From Candidatus Latescibacterota bacterium (GTDB lineage: Bacteria; Latescibacterota; UBA2968; UBA8231), in NCBI GenBank assembly GCA_965204725.1, contig OZ242005.1, forward strand, positions 3,840,001-3,904,000: 64,000 nucleotides of DNA, in the 5' to 3' direction. Each line of letters starts with the position of its first letter. Position 1 is the first letter of the stretch. The position numbers and the translations under genes are program-made. The notes below the pieces were generated by a model. It was not told the DNA's origin. It saw only the letters and a program-made list of their open reading frames with translations, and did no database searches. This document shows, piece by piece, positions 6,397 to 29,889 of the stretch.

Positions 6397-7182
6397 ATGC
6401 ACCCGTTTGAATCGCTGATAGTACCCGAAGGCGCGGTCGGCCTCCACTGGTTTGGCCAGAGCACGTTTGGCCTCAAGGACGCGCCGGGGACCATCGTCCA
6501 AGTCGATCCCTACTACCCCCGCGAGCGGCCCGCCGACCGCTTCATCCACGCCCGGCCCCCGCTCCACGAGGCGTCCCTGCACACGGATTTTGTGCTCCTG
6601 ACCCACGACCACGGCGACCACACGTGTCCAGAGTCCATTGCGCGCATTGCCGCGGCCTATCCCGCCGTGCAGATCGTCGGTCCGGCCGAGAGCATCGAGC
6701 GCGTCCGCGCCGCGAGCATTGCCGCCGCAACAACGACGGTTGCCGCCGGCGACGCAGCCGAGTTGGGCACGATGACGGCTCACGCCGTGTACGCCAAGCC
6801 CCCCGAGGGCCTGCCTAGCGACGACATCGCCCCACCCGATGTGACCCACCTCGGCTACGTGCTAGAGGCCAGTGGGGTGCGCGTGTACATCTCCGGCGAC
6901 CCGGTCAACACGTTTGCCGAGCACGAAGCCCTCCTCGCGCCCATCCGCGCCCTAGCACCCGACATCGGGCTGCTGACCAATCACCCCAGCGAAGGGGAAT
7001 TTCCCTTCTTTGCCGGCTCGGCCAAAATGGCCGCAGCGCTCGGCCTCCAAGCCGCGGTGCCGGCCCATTACGCCTGCTTTGTCGCGCGCAACTACGATCC
7101 CCAACAATGGGCGGCCGCGCTCGCCGGGGTCGAGCCGTTGATCATCCCGTACAACCAATCCGCAGTCTATGCGCCCGGCTAG
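6397..7182 (+). CDS. MBL-fold metallo-hydrolase (UlaG-like)
   Basis: WFGQS, VDPY, THDHGDH, YISGD, VPAHY motifs; GGAG upstream of ATG 6397. Confidence 0.88.
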   Translation: MHPFESLIVPEGAVGLHWFGQSTFGLKDAPGTIVQVDPYYPRERPADRFIHARPPLHEASLHTDFVLLTHDHGDHTCPESIARIAAAYPAVQIVGPAESIERVRAASIAAATTTVAAGDAAELGTMTAHAVYAKPPEGLPSDDIAPPDVTHLGYVLEASGVRVYISGDPVNTFAEHEALLAPIRALAPDIGLLTNHPSEGEFPFFAGSAKMAAALGLQAAVPAHYACFVARNYDPQQWAAALAGVEPLIIPYNQSAVYAPG

Positions 7183-7371
7183 CGCACCGGGGCCGGGCAA
7201 CCGCAAAAATCGACTTTGGCCGAAGTGCCGGCGCATTGCCAAATTTTGGGCGCGTAAGGGCGTCCGGCAGCACACCAAATACAAGCCCTACCAACGTGCT
7301 TGGGGTTTGGCGAAAATCCGCTACTCAAGGCAGTACAGGGCCGCGCAAACGGCGAAATTCGTTCAATCCCT

Positions 7372-8555
7372 CAGAGCGACAACACCCAACGTGCGATCCT
7401 TGAGCACGTCCCTAGCGGTTGCCGCGTCCGCTGTATCGCCAGCGACCCCCGGCGGGCGCACGGGTTGCGGCCAAGCCTTGTAATCGCGGACGAACCGGCC
7501 CAATGACCGCAATCGACTGCGGACGCCGTGTATGCCGCTCTGAGTACGGCGTTGGGCAAGGTCCCTAACTCAAGGCTCGTGGCTATTGGCACACGTAGCG
7601 CGGATAGCGGCCATTGGTTTGAACGGCTATTGAAGGACGCCGACTTCTCGCTGTGCCATGCAGCGGACGCCGAAGATGACCCCTTTGACGAATCGACGTG
7701 GCTAAAGGCATGTCCTCAGTTGAAACGCTTGCCCCATCTACTCAAGGCGTTCCGGGAGGAAGCACGAGCGGCCCAACGTGATCCGGCCTTGCTTGCCCAA
7801 TTCAAGGCGTTGCGCTTGAACATGGGCGTCAGCGACGTGGTCGTCCTCTACTTGGTAACTCCTGACGAATGGTTGGCCGTAGAGGACGAAGTAACGACAA
7901 GCGCGAACAAGACCGGCCCTTGTGTTTGGGGCATTGACTTAGGGGCAACTGCGGCAATGAGCGCCGTTGCCGCATACTACCCGGAAACGGGGCGCATGGA
8001 CGCCATCGCAGCATTCCCCAATGACCCGCCGTTGGGCGTCCGGGAGCGTTTCGATGGCGTAAAACCGGGCTTGTATCAGAATATGGCGGATCGCGCCGAA
8101 TTGCTCCTGTTGGGTGACAAGGTGGTTCCGGTTGGGCAACTACTGAACGCCGCGCAACAGCGGTTGGGCTACCCGGACGCCATCGCTTGCGATAGATGGC
8201 GGTTGGGCGAACTAGAGGACGCTATGACGGACGCCGCACTCCTTGCCCCCGTCCAAGCGCGGGGCATGGGCTTTAGGGATGGGAGCGAAGACGTGCGCTT
8301 GTTCAAGACGGCCCTACTATGAAGGGCGCGTAACCCCCGTCCGCTCGCTCCTGCTGCGTTCCGCAGTTTCAGAAACAACGGCTCGTGCAAGACCCGGCGG
8401 GCAATGCGAAGATCGCAAAAAGCGGCGAGGGTGCTAGACGGCGCTATGGCCGCGACGACCCGGCCGTAGCCGGTGTGCTTGCTGTTGCCCTCGCTGAACG
8501 AATGCCGAAGAAGGTGGCCGTAGCGTTTGACCATATTCCGCTTGACCAGCTTTGA
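7372..8555 (+). pseudogene. terL: Phage terminase large subunit, 5'-truncated, with in-frame TGA at 7504 and frameshifts near 8319 and 8378
   Basis: AHGLRPSLVIADEPAQ* (Walker B), VAIGT, WGIDLG nuclease motif, GMGFRDGSEDVR; tail DPAGNAKIAK...GRDDPAVAGVLAV ends at TGA 8553-8555. Confidence 0.85.
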
Positions 8556-8580
8556 CATCACAGAGGACAAACTCTATGGT
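8552..8580 (+). promoter_or_regulatory. sigma70-type promoter P1, overlapped by palindromic site A
   Basis: TTGACA (8552-8557), 17 bp, TATGGT (8575-8580). Confidence 0.7.
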
Positions 8581-8585
8581 CTTGC

Positions 8586-8670
8586 GCGCCCCGGCCTCAT
8601 TGAAGAGACGCCCTTTGACGGGTTGGCGTCAATCCTGTATGCTGGTCGTGCGCCCCGGCCTCATTGAAGG
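8586..8670 (+). CRISPR. Two CRISPR half-repeats (type I-G/I-U-like 3' end); mini-array or solitary repeat units
   Basis: Exact 20-mer GCGCCCCGGCCTCATTGAAG at 8586-8605 and 8650-8669, 64-bp period; ends in ATTGAAG handle; 5' halves degenerate; no cas genes in window. Confidence 0.65.
8615..8643 (+). promoter_or_regulatory. sigma70-type promoter P2 within the inter-repeat spacer
   Basis: TTGACG (8615-8620), 17 bp, TATGCT (8638-8643). Confidence 0.7.
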
Positions 8671-8689
8671 AAGGAAGGGAAGGCCGCCG

Positions 8690-8719
8690 AACCAACGATA
8701 ACTAGAGTTATCGTTGGTT
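8690..8719. repeat. Perfect palindrome with 14-bp arms
   Basis: AACCAACGATAACT-AG-AGTTATCGTTGGTT. Confidence 0.9.
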
Positions 8720-8727
8720 ACAGCACT

Positions 8728-8759
8728 TCGACACCACAGAGTTTGTCCTCTATGGTGTC
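8728..8759 (+). promoter_or_regulatory. Promoter P3 overlapped by palindromic site B, upstream of the LRR gene
   Basis: TCGACA-N17-TATGGT (8728-8756); site GACACCACAGAG-TTTGTC-CTCTATGGTGTC (8730-8759). Confidence 0.6.
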
Positions 8760-8878
8760 CACCTTGACGCCCCAAAGGGCGATTAACAAGCTGCTGTCCG
8801 CTCCCTACCCTATCAGTCTCATACCCTTCGGCGCACTCAAGGCGGGTGCGCCATTAACCCAAACAAGGAGATACTCCT

Positions 8879-9712
8879 ATGTTTAAGTCTTTCAAAAACC
8901 TACTTGGCCTCAGCCTGCTGGCTTTCTTCGGCGTGTGGATGGGGTGCTCGTCCGAATCCTCGCCCGTCAGCCCTTCAAACAAGGCCGTGACGGACGATGA
9001 CGGATCAGCAACACAAGTATCGACGTTTACTGTTTCGACCGAGGTTTCCATTCCCGACGACAGTCTAAGGGTAGCGGTTACTCAAGGACTCTGGGCTTTG
9101 GTGGCAGAAGGGAAACTCGACATTCCTACGGGGTCAAACCCGCTTACAACGGCAAACCTTGCAAAGCTAGAAACGCTTTCCGCTGGCAGCAAAGGGATTG
9201 CGAATTTGAGCGGCCTTGAGCACGCTACCGACTTGAAAAGCCTGAACCTAAACGGGAACAACGTTGAGGACCTAGCGCCTTTGGCCAATCTGACCAAGTT
9301 GGAATATCTGAACTTGGAAAATAATCTCATTCCCCAAACGGGTTATTCTCATTTGGCTAATCTGACCAAGTTGACAAATCTTAGGATAGGCGGCCACAGA
9401 AACGCCGACATTGGCAGCGACACCCTAGAGGTGGTGGTTGAGAACATGACCAAGTTGACCGCTCTAAAGGTGAACCACATGGGGCTTACGGATATTTCTT
9501 TTTTGGAAAAGGAAAATCTGAAAGAGTTGCGATACTTAAACCTAAATGGCAACCGGGAGATTACGAATCTCAAACCGCTTGCTTGTCTGCCGAATCTGAA
9601 CGATTTGCGCGTAGAGAGGGTTGGTGCTGCTTACAACACCGTTACCGGCGAGGTAAATAAACTTCTCCTATTCTTGATAGGGGAAGGGGTATATGTAGAT
9701 TACATTACTTAG
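8879..9712 (+). CDS. Internalin-like leucine-rich-repeat lipoprotein
   Basis: Lipobox-like WMGC, IPDDSLR cap, repeats such as LSGLEHATDLKSLNLNGNNVEDLAPLANLTKL; AGGAG RBS; lower GC. Confidence 0.9.
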   Translation: MFKSFKNLLGLSLLAFFGVWMGCSSESSPVSPSNKAVTDDDGSATQVSTFTVSTEVSIPDDSLRVAVTQGLWALVAEGKLDIPTGSNPLTTANLAKLETLSAGSKGIANLSGLEHATDLKSLNLNGNNVEDLAPLANLTKLEYLNLENNLIPQTGYSHLANLTKLTNLRIGGHRNADIGSDTLEVVVENMTKLTALKVNHMGLTDISFLEKENLKELRYLNLNGNREITNLKPLACLPNLNDLRVERVGAAYNTVTGEVNKLLLFLIGEGVYVDYIT

Positions 9713-9727
9713 CCCCATGCAGTAGAT

Positions 9728-10027
9728 CGTCCTCTACGCAGAGGACGCCCAACGCCCCGTTGCCGCTTGCCGGTGACGGGGCGTTGCTATGCCGCTCCAA
9801 TACGCCGCTCGTTGGCGTCCGCGCACGATAGACCATTGACCGCCCCCGGCGCACGGGCGATATTGGCAATCCTGTCCTTGAGAGAGACAGGTAGCGCGGC
9901 GCGGCTGACCTACCGGCAGAGTAAACCGGGCGCACGGAAAGTGAAGGGCGGCGTTGGTTGGGCCGATTGCGTAAGCGCGGCCACCGGGTCTAACATCCCC
10001 GGCTTCTTGGGCCAACGCCGCTTTTTT
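9728..10027 (+). ncRNA. Candidate structured RNA / hairpin array ending in a three-way junction and U-tract
   Basis: Consecutive stems 9728-9747, 9750-9786, 9871-9891; closing stem 9948-9957/10012-10021 enclosing two hairpins, then T6. Confidence 0.45.
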
Positions 10028-10042
10028 ATGCCTTGCCCCGTC

Positions 10043-10260
10043 CGCCCCCGGATTTTGTGCAGTGAACAACCCAGCTTGGTTTTGTAAATGGCCGTCACCT
10101 GTTTGGGTTGCCAAACTAGTCGAGCACCAACCCCAACATATAGGGCCTGCGTTGGGCCGAAGCGATACAACATATAGGGGTTGACGCCCTTTGGCCGCGC
10201 TTGCCGATCCGCTACGACCGCGCGCCCCCGGATTTTGTGCAGTGAACATTCAAGCTTGGT
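10043..10260. repeat. 38-bp direct repeat, 180-bp period, with nested 12-bp repeats
   Basis: CGCCCCCGGATTTTGTGCAGTGAACA exact at 10043 and 10223 (35/38 overall); CAACATATAGGG at 10134 and 10168. Confidence 0.9.
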
Positions 10261-10431
10261 GGTCAATCGACGACCACTAAACATCCTCATCGAGTAAAAA
10301 TCTTCTCGCTAACGCCCCCCCAAGCCCCAAGCGCCAATACCCCAACTACCCGCCCAAACCGCTTAGGCGGCGTTACAGCGGTCCTCAAGCCCTTGCATGG
10401 GTTATGCCCGTCCACCATCGTCCTTCTCATA

Positions 10432-10755
10432 ATGTCCACTTCGGCAGAGAGAGCAGAAGTCTATCTGACGCGGCGTTGGCAGCGGTTGCGAGCGGACGTC
10501 CTCAAGCGCGCCAACTGGCTTTGTCAGTGCAGCGACTGCCGACAGCATGGCCGGACGAAGCAGGCCGATTTGGTCCACCACGTGGAACGATGGCAAGCGG
10601 CGTCCGGTGACCGGCGGCAAGAGTTGGCTTTCAATCCTGACAATCTCTTGGCCGTCAACTTCGACTGCCATGCTCGCATACATGCAGCGGACGCCCGGAC
10701 GCCCGAAGATCGGGCATGGGCAACCGCCGTTCATTCACTAATCGACGAGGTTTGA
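10432..10755 (+). CDS. Phage HNH endonuclease (gp74-like packaging cofactor)
   Basis: Y..RRWQRLR..VL...WLC, VHHV, NLLAVNFDCHARIH; directly upstream of capsid gene. Confidence 0.88.
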   Translation: MSTSAERAEVYLTRRWQRLRADVLKRANWLCQCSDCRQHGRTKQADLVHHVERWQAASGDRRQELAFNPDNLLAVNFDCHARIHAADARTPEDRAWATAVHSLIDEV

Positions 10756-23442: not shown

Positions 23443-24573
23443 TATAGCCGTCCTAAGTGGATTGCTATAGAACCCAGCCAAAAGAGTGCATAGCGAGTTT
23501 TTTTCGTGAAGCTATCTGATAAATACCCGAATCGGTGAAAATCGCCTTTCGCCCTCCTCCGATGCGTTCTTGACACGCCTCCTCTTTGGCGTTCTCTTAT
23601 GCTTGTAGCTCTGAAGCGGAGCGCACTGTTCCGCCCGTCGGACGGACCGGAAGATGAGAAACTACCCCCCATTGGCGATGCCGTTGCCGCTGGCCCAACC
23701 CGCCGCGCCGACCCCCTCGTACTACCAGTGCCAAGATTTTACTTTCAATAAATGCTGTAAGTCTTTGAAAAACAGGCAGTTATCCCCCCCCCCTTTTCCG
23801 TTAGACTACGATCTTTTAGCACTACTCAAAGGCTGGATGATCGCTTCGCTGATGCGCGGCGATTGGGCAAAACGACCGTCCCTCGGGGCCGGACCGCCGA
23901 AATCGCAGGGGCCGTGGGGTGATTGAAAAGAGCGGTAAGCTGCTGTTGGTCGTTGCCAGTTTGGCCGTTAGTGCGCTCGTGGTTGAAGTCTCTTTTTGGC
24001 TCCTCGCTCAGGCCGAGCCGATCTATCCCATGATCGATTACTATACGGACGAGCCAAGCCTTCGTTTGATGTGCTACGACGACCACTTTGCGGGTACGCC
24101 CGACTGGGATCTACGGCGGGCACACCCGTTTGGGGAGTTGACCCATTGGTATAATGCCAACAGAGATCCCGCCCTCGCCAATCTATCGCCGCGCAAAGTG
24201 CCCAATGCCATTGAGGTACGCTACAACGAAACCAGAATGCGCGAGCGGCCTATGGCTGCGTTCGATGCGGGGCGGGACAAAATCGTCGTGTTGGTTGGCG
24301 ACTCCTTCTGCTTTGGTCAAGGGGTGCGGGTGGTGGATCGCTTTTCAAATGTCTTGGAGACCCGCTTAAATCGGGAGTACCCCGCCGAACGCTATCGCAT
24401 CTTCAATGCCTGTAGGCGGGGCAGGAATATCGAGCGGATCGCCGAGTTCATGGAGCATTATGTCGAGTACTTTGCTCGGGTTGATCGCGTCGTGTATTCG
24501 TTTGTCCTAAACGATCCAATAAGAAGAGGGCGTCTGGAGGAGTGGAGAAAAGAATTGTTGGAAGGTGAATTTA

Positions 24574-25502
24574 GAGGCTGTCTGAAAACTCCATTTTCTA
24601 TTTGATTCTTTTGAGTAACAGGTGGATCATAGCAATCTGGATCAAGGCTTCGCTATGGCGGGTCAACACCTCATAATCTCGGGCATGACGGCGCGAGTTC
24701 ATCACCCATGCCAAGGTACGCTCGACGACCCAACGGCGTTTGAGTACGGTAAATCCGGGGCCTTGTTTGGCGACGACTTCCAAGTCAATCTTGTGCGTCT
24801 TTTTTAGGTTGGCCACCCATGTTCGGATCGCCTCGCCTCGATAGCCGCCATCGCCCCACAGTTTGCGTAACCGGGCTACGCCGGACGTCCCCAAGCGGGT
24901 CAACACCTGCTGCAAGCCGTCTCGATCGGATACATCGGCGGCGGTGACCACCACCTGTCGAAGCAAGCCTGAGGCGTCGACCAGCAGATGCCGTTTTCGG
25001 CCTTGAACCTTCTTGCCCGCGTCGTAACCGGTTGTTTTACCATGGGTTGCCGTTTTGATGGTCTGACTATCGATACAGCCCGCCGAGGGCGTGGCCGGCC
25101 GGCCGTTGCGGCGGCGTTCCTGCTGGGTGAGCCGTTCCAACACCCGCGGCCAGACCCCGTGCCGGCTCCAGCGACGGAAGTAATCATACACCGTTTTCCA
25201 CGGGCCAAAACAAGCCGGTAACAACGCCCAAGGACACCCCGTCTTGTTCAGATACAAAAGCCCGTTGACGATCGGACGCCGATCCCGCGGCGGCCGACCC
25301 GGACCGTTGGGGCGCCACCGCGGAGCCGGCAGCAACGGTTCGATCTGCTGCCATTGCACATCGGTTACATCGGTTGCATATTGGCCACTGGGCGTACTCA
25401 TCATACGAGCCTTTCTGTTCAGATTTTGTGGTGAAACCTGAATATGGCCTGATGAGTACGCCGATTCAAATACGACTACATAATGGGTTTTCAGACAGCC
25501 TC
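24574..25502 (-). mobile_element. IS5 family (IS1031-like) insertion sequence
   Basis: 16-bp TIRs GAGGCTGTCTGAAAAC / GTTTTCAGACAGCCTC; TTA target duplication at 24571-24573 and 25503-25505. Confidence 0.95.
24598..25404 (-). CDS. IS5 family transposase
   Basis: YATDVTDVQW, IDSQ, GYDAGKKVQGRKRH, DGGY, RWVVERT. Confidence 0.95.
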   Translation of the reverse strand: MMSTPSGQYATDVTDVQWQQIEPLLPAPRWRPNGPGRPPRDRRPIVNGLLYLNKTGCPWALLPACFGPWKTVYDYFRRWSRHGVWPRVLERLTQQERRRNGRPATPSAGCIDSQTIKTATHGKTTGYDAGKKVQGRKRHLLVDASGLLRQVVVTAADVSDRDGLQQVLTRLGTSGVARLRKLWGDGGYRGEAIRTWVANLKKTHKIDLEVVAKQGPGFTVLKRRWVVERTLAWVMNSRRHARDYEVLTRHSEALIQIAMIHLLLKRIK

Positions 25503-25997
25503 TTAACGATTTTATGCACTCGGGGTCTCGGTCCAAGGCAGACTCCGCCCGATTTTTGGCGGGACGGAACAGCTATACCGTGCGTTGGTTTGCCCGGCGC
25601 TTGCAGCGGCGGCAGATCGCCGGCGATACCGTTGAATGGTATCGACAACTCTACACCAACAACCCCCAGTGGCCCCAGACCCAGCAGTTGCTCCGCCGGA
25701 TGAAGAAGTATTGCTCGGCGAAGGGGATTGCCTTCTCTTTAGTCGTCTGGCCTATATTCTACCAACTGGACGCTTATCCCCTAACAGAGGTACACGAAAT
25801 CATTGAGGCTGTGGCGCGGCAAGAGGGGATCCACCACGTGGACTTGCTCCCGCTATTCGCTGGCAAGGACGCCCGGGACTATTGGGTTCACCCGACGGAT
25901 TTTCATCCCAACAGTCGGGCACACGCCGAGGCAGCGGCTTTTCTGTACGACGCCATTCCTTGGTAGTACGGCGTCTAAAGGGGCGAGTTCGCGAAAC

Positions 25998-28162: not shown

Positions 28163-29006
28163 GAAGCTATCTCATAAATAGTCTGGCCGTGCAAAGTTAG
28201 TGGTATTCCCTTTCGGAGGTATCTCTTATGGATCTTACAGACGAACAGTGGTCGATAGCGTCCCCGCTGCTGCCGGCGTGTCCCAAACGCCGCGATGGTC
28301 GGGGTCGTCCTTGGCGTTGTAACCGGGCGGTGCTCAATGGTATTCTGTGGATTCTCCGCACCGGGGCCCCTGGGCATGACCTGCCTGCTCGCTATCCGTC
28401 CTACCAGACCTGCCATCGTCGATTCCAACAGTGGTCGTCTGATGGCACCTTTGAACATATTCTGCGCACCCTCGCGCACGACTTACATGAGCGGGGGGGC
28501 CTCGATCTGAGCGAATGCTTCATCGACGGCCTGTTTGTCGCGGCGAAAAAAGGGGGGACCAAGTGGGTCCGACCAAGCGGGGCAAAGGTACGAAGCTCAT
28601 GGCAGTGGCAGACCGCGCTGGTCTTCCTATCGCCGTACTCATCCAAAGTGCTTCGCCCCACGAAGTCACCCTCGTAGAAGCCACCTTGGAAAACCGATGG
28701 GTCCAGCCCCGACCACAACGACTCATCGGGGACCGAGCCTACGACTCGGATCGATTGGATGCGAGCCTGGCCAACCAAGGCATTGAGATGATCGCCCCGC
28801 ATCGCCGCAATCGCACGCAGGCCAAAACCCAGGACGGGCGGCGCTTGCGGGGCTACAAAAGACGCTGGAAAGTAGAAAGACTGTTTGCTTGGTTGCAGAA
28901 CTTTCGCCGAATCGGGGTTCGATACGAATACTATGCCGAAAACTACCTCGGCTTTGTACAACTCGGATGCATCCTCATATTGCTACGGTATTTATGAGAT
29001 AGCTTC
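28163..29006 (+). mobile_element. IS5 family (IS427-like) element with two-ORF transposase
   Basis: 18-bp TIRs GAAGCTATCTCATAAATA / TATTTATGAGATAGCTTC; orfA 28228-28677, orfB ending 28997; A6G6 slippery site 28546-28557; GDRAYD, RWKVER. Confidence 0.95.
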
Positions 29007-29889
29007 TCGTCACTTCATAGCCATCCTCAACTCGAGATTCGTCAACTACGTTTTGATCCGGATATTTCCTGATATGCCAATCTATCAATTTATTCGTTTT
29101 TTTTCGATAGACTAAAACATATTCTGTTACAGGTACGGCCTTGTACTGCAACGGATTTCTATCAGCCGCAAATCTTCTGCCTCGTCCCGTTGCCCAGCCA
29201 GCCCCTTCCGGTTTTACCCATATTATGTCATCAATAAACTCAAATCCTTCTTCAATAAAAATTCTATGAAAATCAAAAGGAACAGCTATTCTTTTAGAAG
29301 ACTCACTCCGGCTTGCACGGCGAATAAGCACTGGTGATATATTTATGACAAAAAACCTACCTTCGTTTAGAACCCTATGGCATTGGTGTATTATTTTTTT
29401 CATTTTGAGCAAGTATTCATCGTATTGAATATAATCAGAATACTCGGGTCGAGCATTATAGTAGGGTAGAGAAGTAAAGACAAGATCTATAGATTCAGAA
29501 GGTGTCTGCAAAAGCAACTCCTCACTATCTCCCCAACCAACCGTATTTCTCAATTTTGAAACTCTGGGTACTTCTGTTTTTTTCCGCTTCTTGGTTGTAC
29601 CATTTGCACGGCCGAGTAGCCTCGCCTCTAAGATCTCCTTTTGCGTCGTCTTCTTTTCTTGTATTAAGCTCGTATAAGCATCAATCACAATTTCGCCAAC
29701 CTTATGGCCCCCTTTACCTTTCAAGGGCACCCGCCAGATATGATAGCGATCATCTACTTCTGGAAGTCCAAACTGAATCGCATTTTCGAGATCAATATCT
29801 TTTAGATAATTCACAGAAACTCTCTTCGCATCCTCGACATTTTTTACGCGATACTTTCGTCTATCATAGACTGTTGATTTCTGTAGCAT
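29007..29889 (-). pseudogene. N4/N6 DNA methyltransferase (beta class), 3'-truncated by IS
   Basis: IDLVFTSLPYY (SPPY variant), DDIIWVKP; no HPA/FxGxG half; markedly low GC. Confidence 0.85.

Follow-up and report, generated by a model that had tools for sequence, protein, structure and literature searches.

What is a pair of truncated CRISPR repeats, each placed behind a promoter-like sequence, doing in a phage remnant of a bacterial genome without CRISPR-Cas? RNA anti-CRISPRs and the crRNA-like regulators of viruses have been discovered only recently, and type I-G is, to our knowledge, the least studied type I system. We analyzed a window of 64,000 nt from Candidatus Latescibacterota bacterium (contig OZ242005.1, positions 3,840,001 to 3,904,000), in which a first-pass annotation had reported a 20-mer, GCGCCCCGGCCTCATTGAAG, at 8586 and 8650 and had proposed that it starts RNAs mimicking type I-G crRNAs. 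Both copies were found on the + strand, and they are the only ones in the window, also with up to three mismatches allowed (Table 1). Shuffled windows gave 0.02 expected matches, and none of 100 shuffles held two or more. A dispersed REP-like repeat, which the annotation had named as one finding that would speak against it, was rejected, because none of the additional near-matches to the 13-nt core in the 5.43-Mb genome has flanks in common with the cassette. One of them spans an open frame's stop codon, and another is located in coding-like sequence.

Table 1. Features of the half-repeat cassette and its neighbors (window positions).
Feature	Position	Strand	Remark
Terminase large subunit fragment, nuclease domain only	7528..8322	+	Pfam TerL_nuclease 1.6e-6
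Putative final 56 codons of terminase-like gene, different frame	8385..8555	+	ORF list
Cassette, ~198 nt	8540..8737	+	Absent from paralogous TerL-LRR junction
P1, promoter-like	8552..8580	+	TTGACA-17-TATGGT, 10/12
Half-repeat 1	8586..8605	+	G + 3' stem arm CGCCCCGG + CCTCATTGAAG; next base A (C in repeats)
Inverted repeat GACGCC (8607-8612) / GGCGTC (8625-8630)	8607..8630	+	Overlaps P2 -35 box; pairs in fold
P2, promoter-like	8615..8643	+	TTGACG-17-TATGCT, 9/12
Half-repeat 2	8650..8669	+	Same sequence as half-repeat 1; next base G
Purine-rich stretch GAAGGAAGGGAAGGCCGCCG	8670..8689	+	20 nt directly after half-repeat 2
Perfect 14-bp hairpin, 8690-8703 / 8706-8719	8690..8719	+	No U tract
P3, promoter-like	8728..8756	+	TCGACA-17-TATGGT, 9/12; native junction sequence, present in paralog too
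LRR gene, putative lipoprotein	8879..9712	+	Pfam LRR_4 5.8e-15

The ending given for type I-G repeats in the annotation belongs to a real family. A collection scan for pairs of ...GGCCTCATTGAAG at CRISPR spacing gave at least 119 loci, and this tail is the constant part of the family. Arrays of the 36-nt repeat ATTTCCGGGGTGGAAACGCCCCGGCCTCATTGAAGC occur in 10 of 30 same-genus genomes, where they have type I-G genes and a Csm module as neighbors; Cas8g1/Csx17, Csb1, Csb2 and Cas4g/Cas1g are encoded at one of these loci. Csb2 was found in 11 of the 30 genomes, and Cas3g scored above the cut-off in 11 of 31, the window's own genome not among them. The half-repeat agrees with the 3' portion of the genus repeat at 19/19 bases, and the 20-mer represents the 3' stem arm and 5' handle of the 36-nt repeat. 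The repeat tail ...GGCCTCATTGAAGC, source of the 8-nt 5' handle, is present in both half-repeats, with A or G and not C as the last handle base. Only 4/16 positions immediately before copy 1 agree with the 5' half of the repeat (hand count), the 5' stem arm is absent upstream of copy 2, and no CCGGGG lies upstream of either copy in the region read. The full 36-nt unit, with its 7-8-bp hairpin 4 nt before the cleavage site, is missing from the cassette, and the half-repeats are spaced 64 nt apart, compared with a period of 72-74 nt in arrays.

We scanned positions 7500-9500 for promoter-like sites, scoring hexamers out of 12 against a sigma70-like consensus, which may not be the phylum's own. 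Three sites were found, all on the + strand, whereas shuffles expect 0.5 +/- 0.8. The results supported the annotated layout, in which each half-repeat follows its own promoter and the "spacer" is itself a promoter: the distance from -10 box to 20-mer is 5 nt for P1 and 6 nt for P2, and P2 lies entirely inside the interval between the copies. Comparison of the two 64-nt units revealed that both promoter hexamers (-35 and -10) are kept, as is the 20-mer (20/20), while the 18 nt between the hexamers match at just 5/18 positions (hand count). P3 was missing from the first-pass list; a palindrome at 8558-8579 inside P1 has a second copy in P3 and occurs at three places in the genome in total. Genome-wide, sigma70-like sites of at least 10/12 number 215 outside long ORFs (19% of the DNA) versus 91 within them (81%), a ten times higher density. 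The transcription start had been predicted at the beginning of the half-repeat. This predicted start does fall on the first base of the 3' stem arm, but not on the handle: the mature 8-nt handle (ATTGAAG-) begins 13 nt further downstream.

The sequences reported downstream of each copy, the GACGCC/GGCGTC pair after copy 1 and the purine-rich stretch with its perfect hairpin after copy 2, were also confirmed. The fold of 8650-8722 gave z = -3.62, and the hairpin at its end is ~75-80% like a terminator hairpin downstream of the paralogous LRR gene (hand count); it probably forms the 3' end of the predicted RNAs. The closing stem of unit 1 with downstream sequence is weak (4+5 bp, z = -0.47), and the idea of a permuted stem in unit 1 was discarded because this fold is not above shuffles. 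Searching Rfam with 7000-10500 at E <= 1 returned no family except one weak, unrelated sRNA match.

We investigated how the cassette is placed in the genome. At the paralog (C1:4094xxx), the flanks of the cassette are contiguous, with 4094230 beside 4094228, and window positions 7766-8539 share 85% identity with C1:4094230-4095001 (82% for the sub-stretch 8348-8539). Contigs of runs X1 and X3, from two studies, contain the cassette with 0 differences, and in those of X4 and X7 it is bypassed, for instance by a joint 8533>8812. No exact copy was found in 167 other sampled genomes of the phylum and no orthologous cassette in the genus; the cassette is known from one strain. The terminase fragment upstream matches PHROG 9 (2.6e-26) at profile positions 337-590 of 812. 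ORF 8385..8555 reads, in translation, as the terminase C-terminus, and its TGA stop (8553-8555) falls within the -35 box of P1. The surrounding island contains a TerL C-terminal piece, an HNH protein and a capsid protein, and it sits among TonB-receptor and T9SS-type genes. The "phage-like element" of the annotation is thus phage-derived, but it is only a remnant with a broken terminase. A tblastx comparison of the island with IMG/VR contigs carrying I-G repeats detected no homology.

Downstream of the cassette lies the LRR gene, which would be a lipoprotein judging by its N-terminus. It has paralogs at C1:4093187-4094228 and C1:3471421-3472710, and a more distant one at C1:2956821-2957746. 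The genome holds a second I-G-like solitary repeat, which adjoins another LRR paralog within a TerL-capsid-protease-portal island, and the sole promoter-like signal there would read the repeat antisense, as an LRR leader. Both I-G-like elements of the genome are thus directly upstream of LRR lipoprotein paralogs, as might be expected of a DNA or regulatory element for the LRR gene that makes no independent RNAs, be it a site of recombination with CRISPR arrays, a lure for the Cas1-Cas2 integrase or a segment of a long 5' leader. In genome G003, a repeat tail, TTGAAG, doubles as a -35-like box for the next gene. We nevertheless consider such an element very unlikely, since the other two close LRR paralogs (C1:4094xxx and C1:3471xxx) are without it, 20 nt is short for recombination, and P1 and P2 are positioned for RNA starts at the half-repeats while the LRR gene retains its own conserved upstream region.

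A matching I-G system, which the annotation expected in the host or its relatives, is present in relatives, as the genus arrays demonstrate, but not in the window's genome. There, Csb2 and Cas1 gave 0 matches, tblastn of 10 Cas proteins gave no match, and neither I-G nor Csm effector genes were found. Candidate CRISPR arrays from a k-mer scan were rejected as LRR, ankyrin and similar coding repeats. The sole remains are a cas3g stub followed by one degenerate repeat (C1:1208534-1209685), 2.6 Mb from the cassette, suggesting that the genome formerly had a matching I-G system. The proposal that the RNAs poison or borrow the host Cascade is therefore not supported for the present genome: with no I-G or Csm effector genes, nothing is left to mimic in it today, and the predicted RNAs would be orphaned because the I-G locus has decayed.

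With the I-G genes lost, the island broken and the cassette strain-specific, the half-repeats might be a relic that is and always was functionless, that is, a captured or rearranged fragment, in the island, of either a CRISPR array or a minimal crRNA gene, next to hexamers that are fortuitous or belong to the LRR gene. Degenerate repeat scraps beside former array sites are indeed abundant in the genus (G003, G014 and G028). We find a relic somewhat unlikely, however, because the 20-mers are identical though the DNA between the hexamers has diverged to the random level, and because they keep the same register behind the -10 boxes in both copies, a register independently repeated in the metagenome contig L316. 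The 64-nt period also differs from that of arrays, and the genome's true array relic is 2.6 Mb distant.

In the search for the same layout in related elements, L316 was found to repeat the register from promoter to half-repeat, and the genus yielded no orthologous cassette. In L316, which is independent of the window, a -10 box is followed after 6 nt by GCGCCCCGG..., as in the cassette. Its full order is TTGATT-16-TATGAT, 6 nt, GCGCCCCGGCCTCATTGAAGC, a 26-nt spacer, ATTTCCGGGGCGC and an intrinsic terminator, and the half-repeat is thereby completed by a spacer, a 5' half-repeat and a terminator. This layout points to an RNA start at the 3' arm as a recurring design. Our half-repeat classifier was noisy, many of its 404 "half" calls being array repeats with 7-bp stems, and only inspected cases were used. 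Three units in public contigs, L316, L300 and L178, share the I-G tail and 3' arm with the window units. In contrast to the window units, which have no such partner, a 5' half-repeat follows a 26-38-nt spacer in all three, so that their ends pair over 9-12 bp (fold z = -3.7, -5.4 and -1.4, respectively). In IMG/VR, 14 contigs carry repeat pairs of the same I-G family, and 10 of them are 2-repeat units.

The split-repeat units show that a guide design exists, and the cassette might likewise encode guides and not decoys. Unit 1 would then be a minimal crRNA-like gene that, in the manner of CreR/CreA and viral Cracr RNAs, steers Cascade to a promoter with a partial match, and unit 2 another short guide, closed off by the hairpin. 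Between the handle of unit 1, whose last base is 8606, and the stretch that pairs with the unit's 5' end, which starts at 8644, there are 37 nt, the spacer length of the family; the unit can be read as a handle, a guide-length segment of ~37 nt and a degenerate 5' arm that lies just before half-repeat 2 and overlaps its start. In the relatives G002 and G006, a conserved first spacer is shared beside a GAAGG-ending repeat, resembling host regulatory mini-arrays. However, the stem that would close unit 1 does not exceed shuffles, and the "spacer" of this unit is occupied by P2. We searched for targets in 277,523 bases of cas loci from 10 relatives, where exact 11-mers from the first three positions of either guide-like segment had no match, and 12-mers taken where the segments begin, allowing 2 mismatches at most and requiring a TTN PAM, matched at about the chance rate. 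The best candidate, a weak lead, matches 11 of the 12 first bases after half-repeat 2 with a TTC PAM within cas4g/cas1g of G013 and G023, but its seed position 4 is mismatched and the site is within a coding region. A look-alike site at ~8766-8793, read from the sequence, is mismatched at positions 1-2. The downstream segments gave 0 matches as exact 20-mers in IMG/VR and short chance matches only in the window's genome. We regard guides as quite improbable.

A mini-CRISPR array for conflicts among mobile elements, with two processable repeats flanking a spacer against another element, was considered as well; the cassette has no full repeats, and no protospacer was found in the window's genome, in IMG/VR (exact 20-mers) or in the relatives' cas loci. 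Among 2,870 spacers collected from relatives, 6 distinct ones gave matches of at least 24 nt to the window's genome and none inside the window; the best (32/33) falls in paralogous chromosomal genes.

The interpretation we favor, to which we give an even chance, is that the cassette is a pair of crRNA-mimic RNA genes of a mobile element, of the Racr or Cracr kind, which arose from a CRISPR repeat and lie in a phage-derived island. Each gene would have a sigma70-type promoter starting transcription at the first base of the repeat's 3' half, and both would share the terminator-like hairpin, giving predicted RNAs of ~137 nt and ~73 nt that start GCGCCCCGGCCUC-AUUGAAG. The role of these RNAs would have been to gain entry to, or to occupy, the proteins with which an I-G Cascade of the host binds crRNA, and perhaps also those of the Csm complex that uses the same repeats, acting on immunity as a decoy or a guide-like regulator, as for Racr and Cracr. 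The cassette probably made crRNA look-alikes against a CRISPR system that the host has since lost, and its genes are probably orphaned in this genome now.

Several observations were counted in favor of these crRNA-mimic genes: the repeat identity, the hexamers and 20-mer kept while the DNA between hexamers diverged, the 5-6 nt register and its recurrence in L316, the extra DNA ending in a terminator-related hairpin, the cas3g stub, the second solitary repeat by an LRR paralog and the 2-repeat units in IMG/VR. Counted against them was the lack of a 5' arm in the units, since Csb2 binds the repeat hairpin and not the 8-nt handle, and type I-G is unusual in that no Cas5 holds the 5' handle, as the text of PMC9638904 describes. 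The 13 extra nt before the handle, its altered last base, the weak stem of unit 1 compared with L316, L300 and L178, the missing effector genes, the absence of a protospacer-like target in the searches above and the restriction of the cassette to a single strain (0 of 167 other genomes of the phylum), with no conservation across species, weigh on the same side.

A wider class of mimics for type I-G and the co-resident Csm, with the 5' end set by transcription, is an unlikely extension of this reading. In its complete form (L316, L300 and L178), the half-repeats would pair across the guide and rebuild the Csb2 stem in permuted order, yielding one guide from ~100 nt of DNA. In its stripped, hairpin-free form, that of the window, a mobile element would retain only the promoter and the 3' half, in tandem, and the RNAs might engage Cas7 or a handle-reading surface without the Cas6 hairpin, poisoning effector assembly. 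If such a class is real, it would offer a hairpin-independent RNA anti-CRISPR route and the first such case for type I-G. Units reduced to the handle-bearing half of the repeat and set exactly at predicted transcription starts raise the question of which part of a crRNA suffices to engage an I-G or Csm effector. An active cassette would be a very small inhibitor or guide scaffold and would imply that repeat mimics can outlast the immune system they target; an inert one would still mark the recent loss of CRISPR-Cas in the lineage.

RNA anti-CRISPRs and viral crRNA-like regulators have been described for types I-B, I-C, I-E, I-F and V-A in the papers cited here. Racrs, RNA anti-CRISPRs from solitary repeat units (Camara-Wilpert et al., Nature 2023, PMC10651486), resemble the cassette in being repeat look-alikes outside arrays, in phage-derived DNA and directly behind a predicted promoter, and in their proposed action, competition for Cas proteins. 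In the main text, which contains no occurrence of "I-G" or "I-U" (the supplementary tables may list I-G candidates), RacrIF1 acts via Cas6f and Cas7f, and candidates were chosen by likeness to the whole repeat in sequence and secondary structure, including the hairpin; the cassette has the 3' half only, twice, and no repeat hairpin. A Racr or solitary repeat unit is further marked by a predicted promoter at most 250 bp upstream and expression as a small RNA, by binding of Cas6/Cas7 with inhibition of interference, and by a location on a virus, prophage or plasmid without linkage to other (partial) repeats. The cassette has promoter-like sites and lies in a phage-derived remnant, yet as two tandem partial repeats. 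About 90% of the hosts there carry CRISPR-Cas, unlike the host of the cassette.

Cracrs, viral crRNA-like regulatory RNAs (Liu et al., bioRxiv 10.1101/2024.10.29.618823), are phage or plasmid RNA genes from degenerate repeats, at times stacked and with short spacers, much like the cassette; one V-A Cracr consists of a single repeat, a spacer and a terminator. By the definition in that text, a Cracr matches a cas or creT promoter at 9 or more PAM-proximal positions, and no such target was found for the cassette in the cas loci searched from 10 relatives. They are listed there for V-A, I-F, I-E, I-C and I-B, with no occurrence of "I-G" in the text, although supplementary tables may list I-G candidates. 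At the 3' end, which a second repeat or a terminator defines in Cracr, CreR and CreA, the cassette has a terminator-like hairpin without a U tract and no 5' half-repeat. In host mini-arrays and standalone repeats such as CreA and CreR, as described in the texts of PMC9458426 and PMC10120712, the first degenerate repeat keeps little beyond the source of the 5' handle, as in the cassette, and of the 235 I-G loci in Table 1 of PMC10120712, 46% have a repeat-like sequence and 4% a mini-array. Such host elements are located within CRISPR-cas loci, and a second repeat supplies their 3' handle. The cassette, in contrast, is part of an island of phage origin, at a distance of 2.6 Mb from the cas remains, and carries the 3' half twice without any 5' half. 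The use of solitary repeats by mobile elements as RNA anti-CRISPRs or crRNA-like guides, named in the first-pass annotation, is thus a described phenomenon. The tandem layout, which the annotation did not know from any described system, is a variant and not a new category, because solitary repeat RNAs and viral crRNA-like RNAs have already been described.

The cassette (window 8540-8737, about 198 nt) contains the 20-mer GCGCCCCGGCCTCATTGAAG. The first-pass annotation had described the 20-mer as occurring twice, each copy behind its own promoter-like site, and this was borne out: the copies begin 5 nt (P1, copy 1) and 6 nt (P2, copy 2) after the -10 boxes. No third copy was found in the window with up to 3 mismatches allowed; 0.02 matches were expected from shuffled sequences, none of 100 of which held two or more. 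Between 7500 and 9500 the promoter scan gave three sigma70-like sites, each on the + strand, where shuffles predicted 0.5 +/- 0.8. P1 and P3 both enclose the palindrome CCAYAGAG-N6-CTCTRTGG, whose three sites genome-wide are P1, P3 and one paralog. After copy 2 come 20 purine-rich nt and then, at 8690-8719, a perfect 14-bp hairpin; this hairpin is about 75-80% like a terminator hairpin 3' of the paralogous LRR lipoprotein gene (hand count).

Features of the cassette region and split-repeat units in other contigs
Feature	Sequence or layout	Location	Strand	Source
Half-repeat 1	GCGCCCCGGCCTCATTGAAG	window 8586-8605	+	sequence search of window
Half-repeat 2	GCGCCCCGGCCTCATTGAAG	window 8650-8669	+	sequence search of window
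P1	TTGACA-17-TATGGT	window 8552-8580	+	promoter scan
P2	TTGACG-17-TATGCT	window 8615-8643	+	promoter scan
P3	TCGACA-17-TATGGT	window 8728-8756	+	promoter scan
Inverted repeat after copy 1	GACGCC/GGCGTC	window 8607-8612 / 8625-8630		
Single-guide split-repeat units	3' half-repeat / 26-38-nt spacer / 5' half-repeat	L316:774-912; L300:1636-1715; L178:11280-11372		

Sequence comparison confirmed that the 20-mer is the 3' half of a type I-G CRISPR repeat. Scanning one genome per species, we found two GGCCTCATTGAAG copies at CRISPR spacing in at least 119 loci, whose 36-37-nt consensus units open with a short 5' stretch, continue with a sequence-variable hairpin of 7-8 bp and close with a constant tail (GG)CCTCATTGAAGC. 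Among 60 relatives scanned, arrays of this tail family were present in 10/30 same-genus genomes and 0/30 others. The repeat of the genus is ATTTCCGGGGTGGAAACGCCCCGGCCTCATTGAAGC; the 20-mer consists of G, the entire 3' arm CGCCCCGG and CCTCATTGAAG, and is identical to it at 19/19 bases, the last repeat base C being A at copy 1 and G at copy 2. The 5' arm is absent upstream of both copies (upstream of copy 1, 4/16 bases agree with the 5' half of the genus repeat by hand count). A further variant in metagenomes, ATCCGGGGCGCGCGCGCCCCGGCCTCATTGAAGC (36 loci), has the exact 20-mer as its 3' half, so the match is to the family as a whole and not just to the genus repeat. Excerpts of PMC9638904 place Csb2 cleavage 4 nt 3' of the hairpin, leaving an 8-nt handle; because this rule fits CCTC|ATTGAAGC here, the orientation of the half-repeats is fixed.

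The arrays of the genus lie beside I-G cas genes, in agreement with the identity given in the first-pass annotation, and the matching array with cas genes that it proposed to seek exists in relatives such as G013, where the array adjoins Cas8g1/Csx17, Csb1/Cas7g, Csb2 and Cas4g/Cas1g, a Csm1-4/CARF module lying between them. Csb2 was found in 11/30 same-genus genomes, Cas3g above cut-off in those same 11, the Csx17 model in 4/30, and the Csm module in 5/10 array loci examined (tblastn).

Loci L140 (G013), L156/L157 (G019), L159 (G014), L142 (G029) and L152 (G023) combine I-G genes, a Csm1-4 module and cas4g/cas1g-cas2 around a single repeat family; a CARF gene accompanies the module in 4/5 (none detected in G019). 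The two effector modules are separated by a small mini-array and, in G014, also by a Phd-type antitoxin gene. Two species, at L162/L163 (G002:C1:6190092) and L141 (G006:C401:31350-31455), share the first spacer AACGCCTTTCGGCATCAAAG..., adjoined by a repeat ending in GAAGG and a second, degenerate one; it is inverted in a third species, at L158 (G028:C1:8197), and the unit may yield a crRNA-like RNA with a regulatory role in the host. A relic repeat, conserved spacer and very degenerate repeat also occur at L326:1480-1600 (G003), L159:11713 (G014) and L158:8269 (G028), just 5' of one conserved gene (product start MNDxExLQYLFDVQGYLVLENV); in G003 the promoter-like site TTGAAG-17-TATATT takes its -35 box from the repeat tail TTGAAG.

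We then searched the window's own genome (2 contigs, 5.43 Mb, 94% complete). It gave no match to Cas1, Csb2 or Csx17, no tblastn hit to ten G013 Cas proteins and no CRISPR array by k-mer scan. A frameshifted cas3g stub in two frames, below the family cut-off, lies at C1:1208534-1209600 (profile positions 2-353 of 854), directly followed by a single degenerate I-G repeat, ATTTCCGGGGAGGAAACGTCCCGGCCTCATTGAAT, at C1:1209651-1209685. The interval C1:1208534-1209685 is what a deleted I-G locus left behind, and the lineage formerly had this I-G system. An anti-CRISPR or guide function is plausible from sequence; it cannot operate in the present genome as it stands, and neither can the earlier proposal of poisoning or borrowing host Cascade, the I-G system being gone save for the stub and one decayed repeat. 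That the cassette is itself an inert relic seems unlikely to us, though of the rival readings it deserves the most weight.

The cassette follows a terminase large-subunit (TerL) fragment that retains the nuclease domain only, with its final 56 codons in another frame and its stop inside the P1 -35 box. On its 3' side come genes for an LRR lipoprotein, an HNH protein and a capsid protein, with TonB-receptor and T9SS-type genes beyond. The suggested phage-like element is thus a phage-derived remnant and not a prophage. At the paralogous TerL-LRR junction C1:4094xxx both cassette flanks are matched (82-85% and 73-78% identity) and contiguous, which marks 8540-8737 as extra DNA. We consider it improbable that the cassette acts as DNA or as leader of the LRR gene. 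Contigs of runs X1 and X3 (two studies) carried the cassette with 0 differences, and those of X4 and X7 held solely cassette-less junctions; among 168 genomes sampled from the phylum, it is unique to this strain.

The LRR lipoprotein gene has four copies (window 8879-9712, C1:4093187-4094228, C1:3471421-3472710, C1:2956821-2957746), three close and one at 68-70% identity, and 3/4 adjoin terminase genes or fragments. At C1:2957765-2957800 (L192:13765-13800) one full I-G-like repeat stands alone, with a hairpin of its own (GG-CTGTGG-TGAAT-CCACGG-CCTCATTGAAGC), 16 nt from the start of a third LRR paralog in a TerL-capsid-protease-portal island; the sole promoter-like site there, TTGACC-18-TAGACT on the opposite strand, would read the repeat antisense, as LRR leader. 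Two multi-copy elements, at window 24570-25507 (about 940 nt, six more copies at 99.7-100% identity) and 28163-29018 (about 850 nt, eleven more full-length copies at 95-97%), look like insertion sequences.

Aligning the two 64-nt units showed that the -35 box, -10 box and 20-mer are kept, with 5/18 matches between the hexamers (hand count), a pattern that fits selection on promoter plus half-repeat and not recent duplication. The sigma70 consensus is probably used in this genome, since sites scoring at least 10/12 have ten times the density outside long ORFs that they have within them. The search for the same layout elsewhere, also proposed earlier, succeeded in metagenome contig L316, which reads TTGATT-16-TATGAT, 6 nt, the I-G 3' half-repeat GCGCCCCGGCCTCATTGAAGC, a 26-nt spacer, ATTTCCGGGGCGC and an intrinsic terminator; we think this the most telling support for a cassette built to be transcribed. 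Folds were computed for L316, L300 and L178 (an IMG/VR contig), whose predicted RNA ends pair in a 9-bp stem (z = -3.7), over 12 bp (z = -5.4) and over 9 bp (z = -1.4, not significant); L056, L091 and L280 are candidate look-alikes. From these layouts and folds, RNAs starting at the I-G repeat 3' arm are predicted to recur, and in the complete split-repeat form the 3' arm is modelled as pairing with the 5' arm located after the guide. Repeat pairs of the I-G tail family occur in 14 IMG/VR contigs, 10/14 as 2-repeat units; at least one of them, L173, bears a cas1 fragment and probably comes from a host.

IMG/VR contig L167 has three tandem units and, about 570 nt from them, a fourth; every unit shows the I-G tail but a hairpin sequence of its own, and the ends are GAAGC, GAAGA and GAAGG.

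Some points do not fit. Neither unit in the window has a 5' arm to pair with, and the unit 1 stem is only 4+5 bp (z = -0.47), formed with sequence just before and overlapping the start of half-repeat 2. Csb2 binds the hairpin, not the handle, and in I-G no Cas5 holds the handle (excerpts of PMC9638904); part of a preprint reports the stem-loop as dispensable for Csb2 cleavage (10.1101/2022.08.19.504415). No target of the downstream segments was found in 277,523 bases of relatives' cas loci, in the own genome or, as exact 20-mers, in IMG/VR. The one lead, within cas4g/cas1g of G013 and G023, matches 11/12 bases beside a TTC PAM; such matches occur at about the chance rate, and seed position 4 is mismatched. 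The matches of at least 24 nt given by 2,870 collected spacers all lie outside the window.

Overall, we see about an even chance that the cassette comprises CRISPR-mimic RNA genes, a decoy being likelier than a guide. A guide-type regulator specifically is rather improbable.

Related systems have already been described: Racr, phage-borne solitary repeats downstream of promoters (PMC10651486); Cracr, viral crRNA-like regulators (10.1101/2024.10.29.618823); and host mini-arrays and standalone repeats (PMC10120712, PMC9458426). "I-G" occurs 0 times in the main texts of PMC10651486 and 10.1101/2024.10.29.618823 and once in PMC10120712, in a table that counts 235 I-G loci, 46% with repeat-like sequence. 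By analogy the cassette would function most like these systems, yet it departs from their definitions: compared with Racr it lacks the repeat hairpin and is not solitary, compared with Cracr no promoter match was found for it in the relatives' cas loci searched, and compared with host mini-arrays it lies outside any cas locus.
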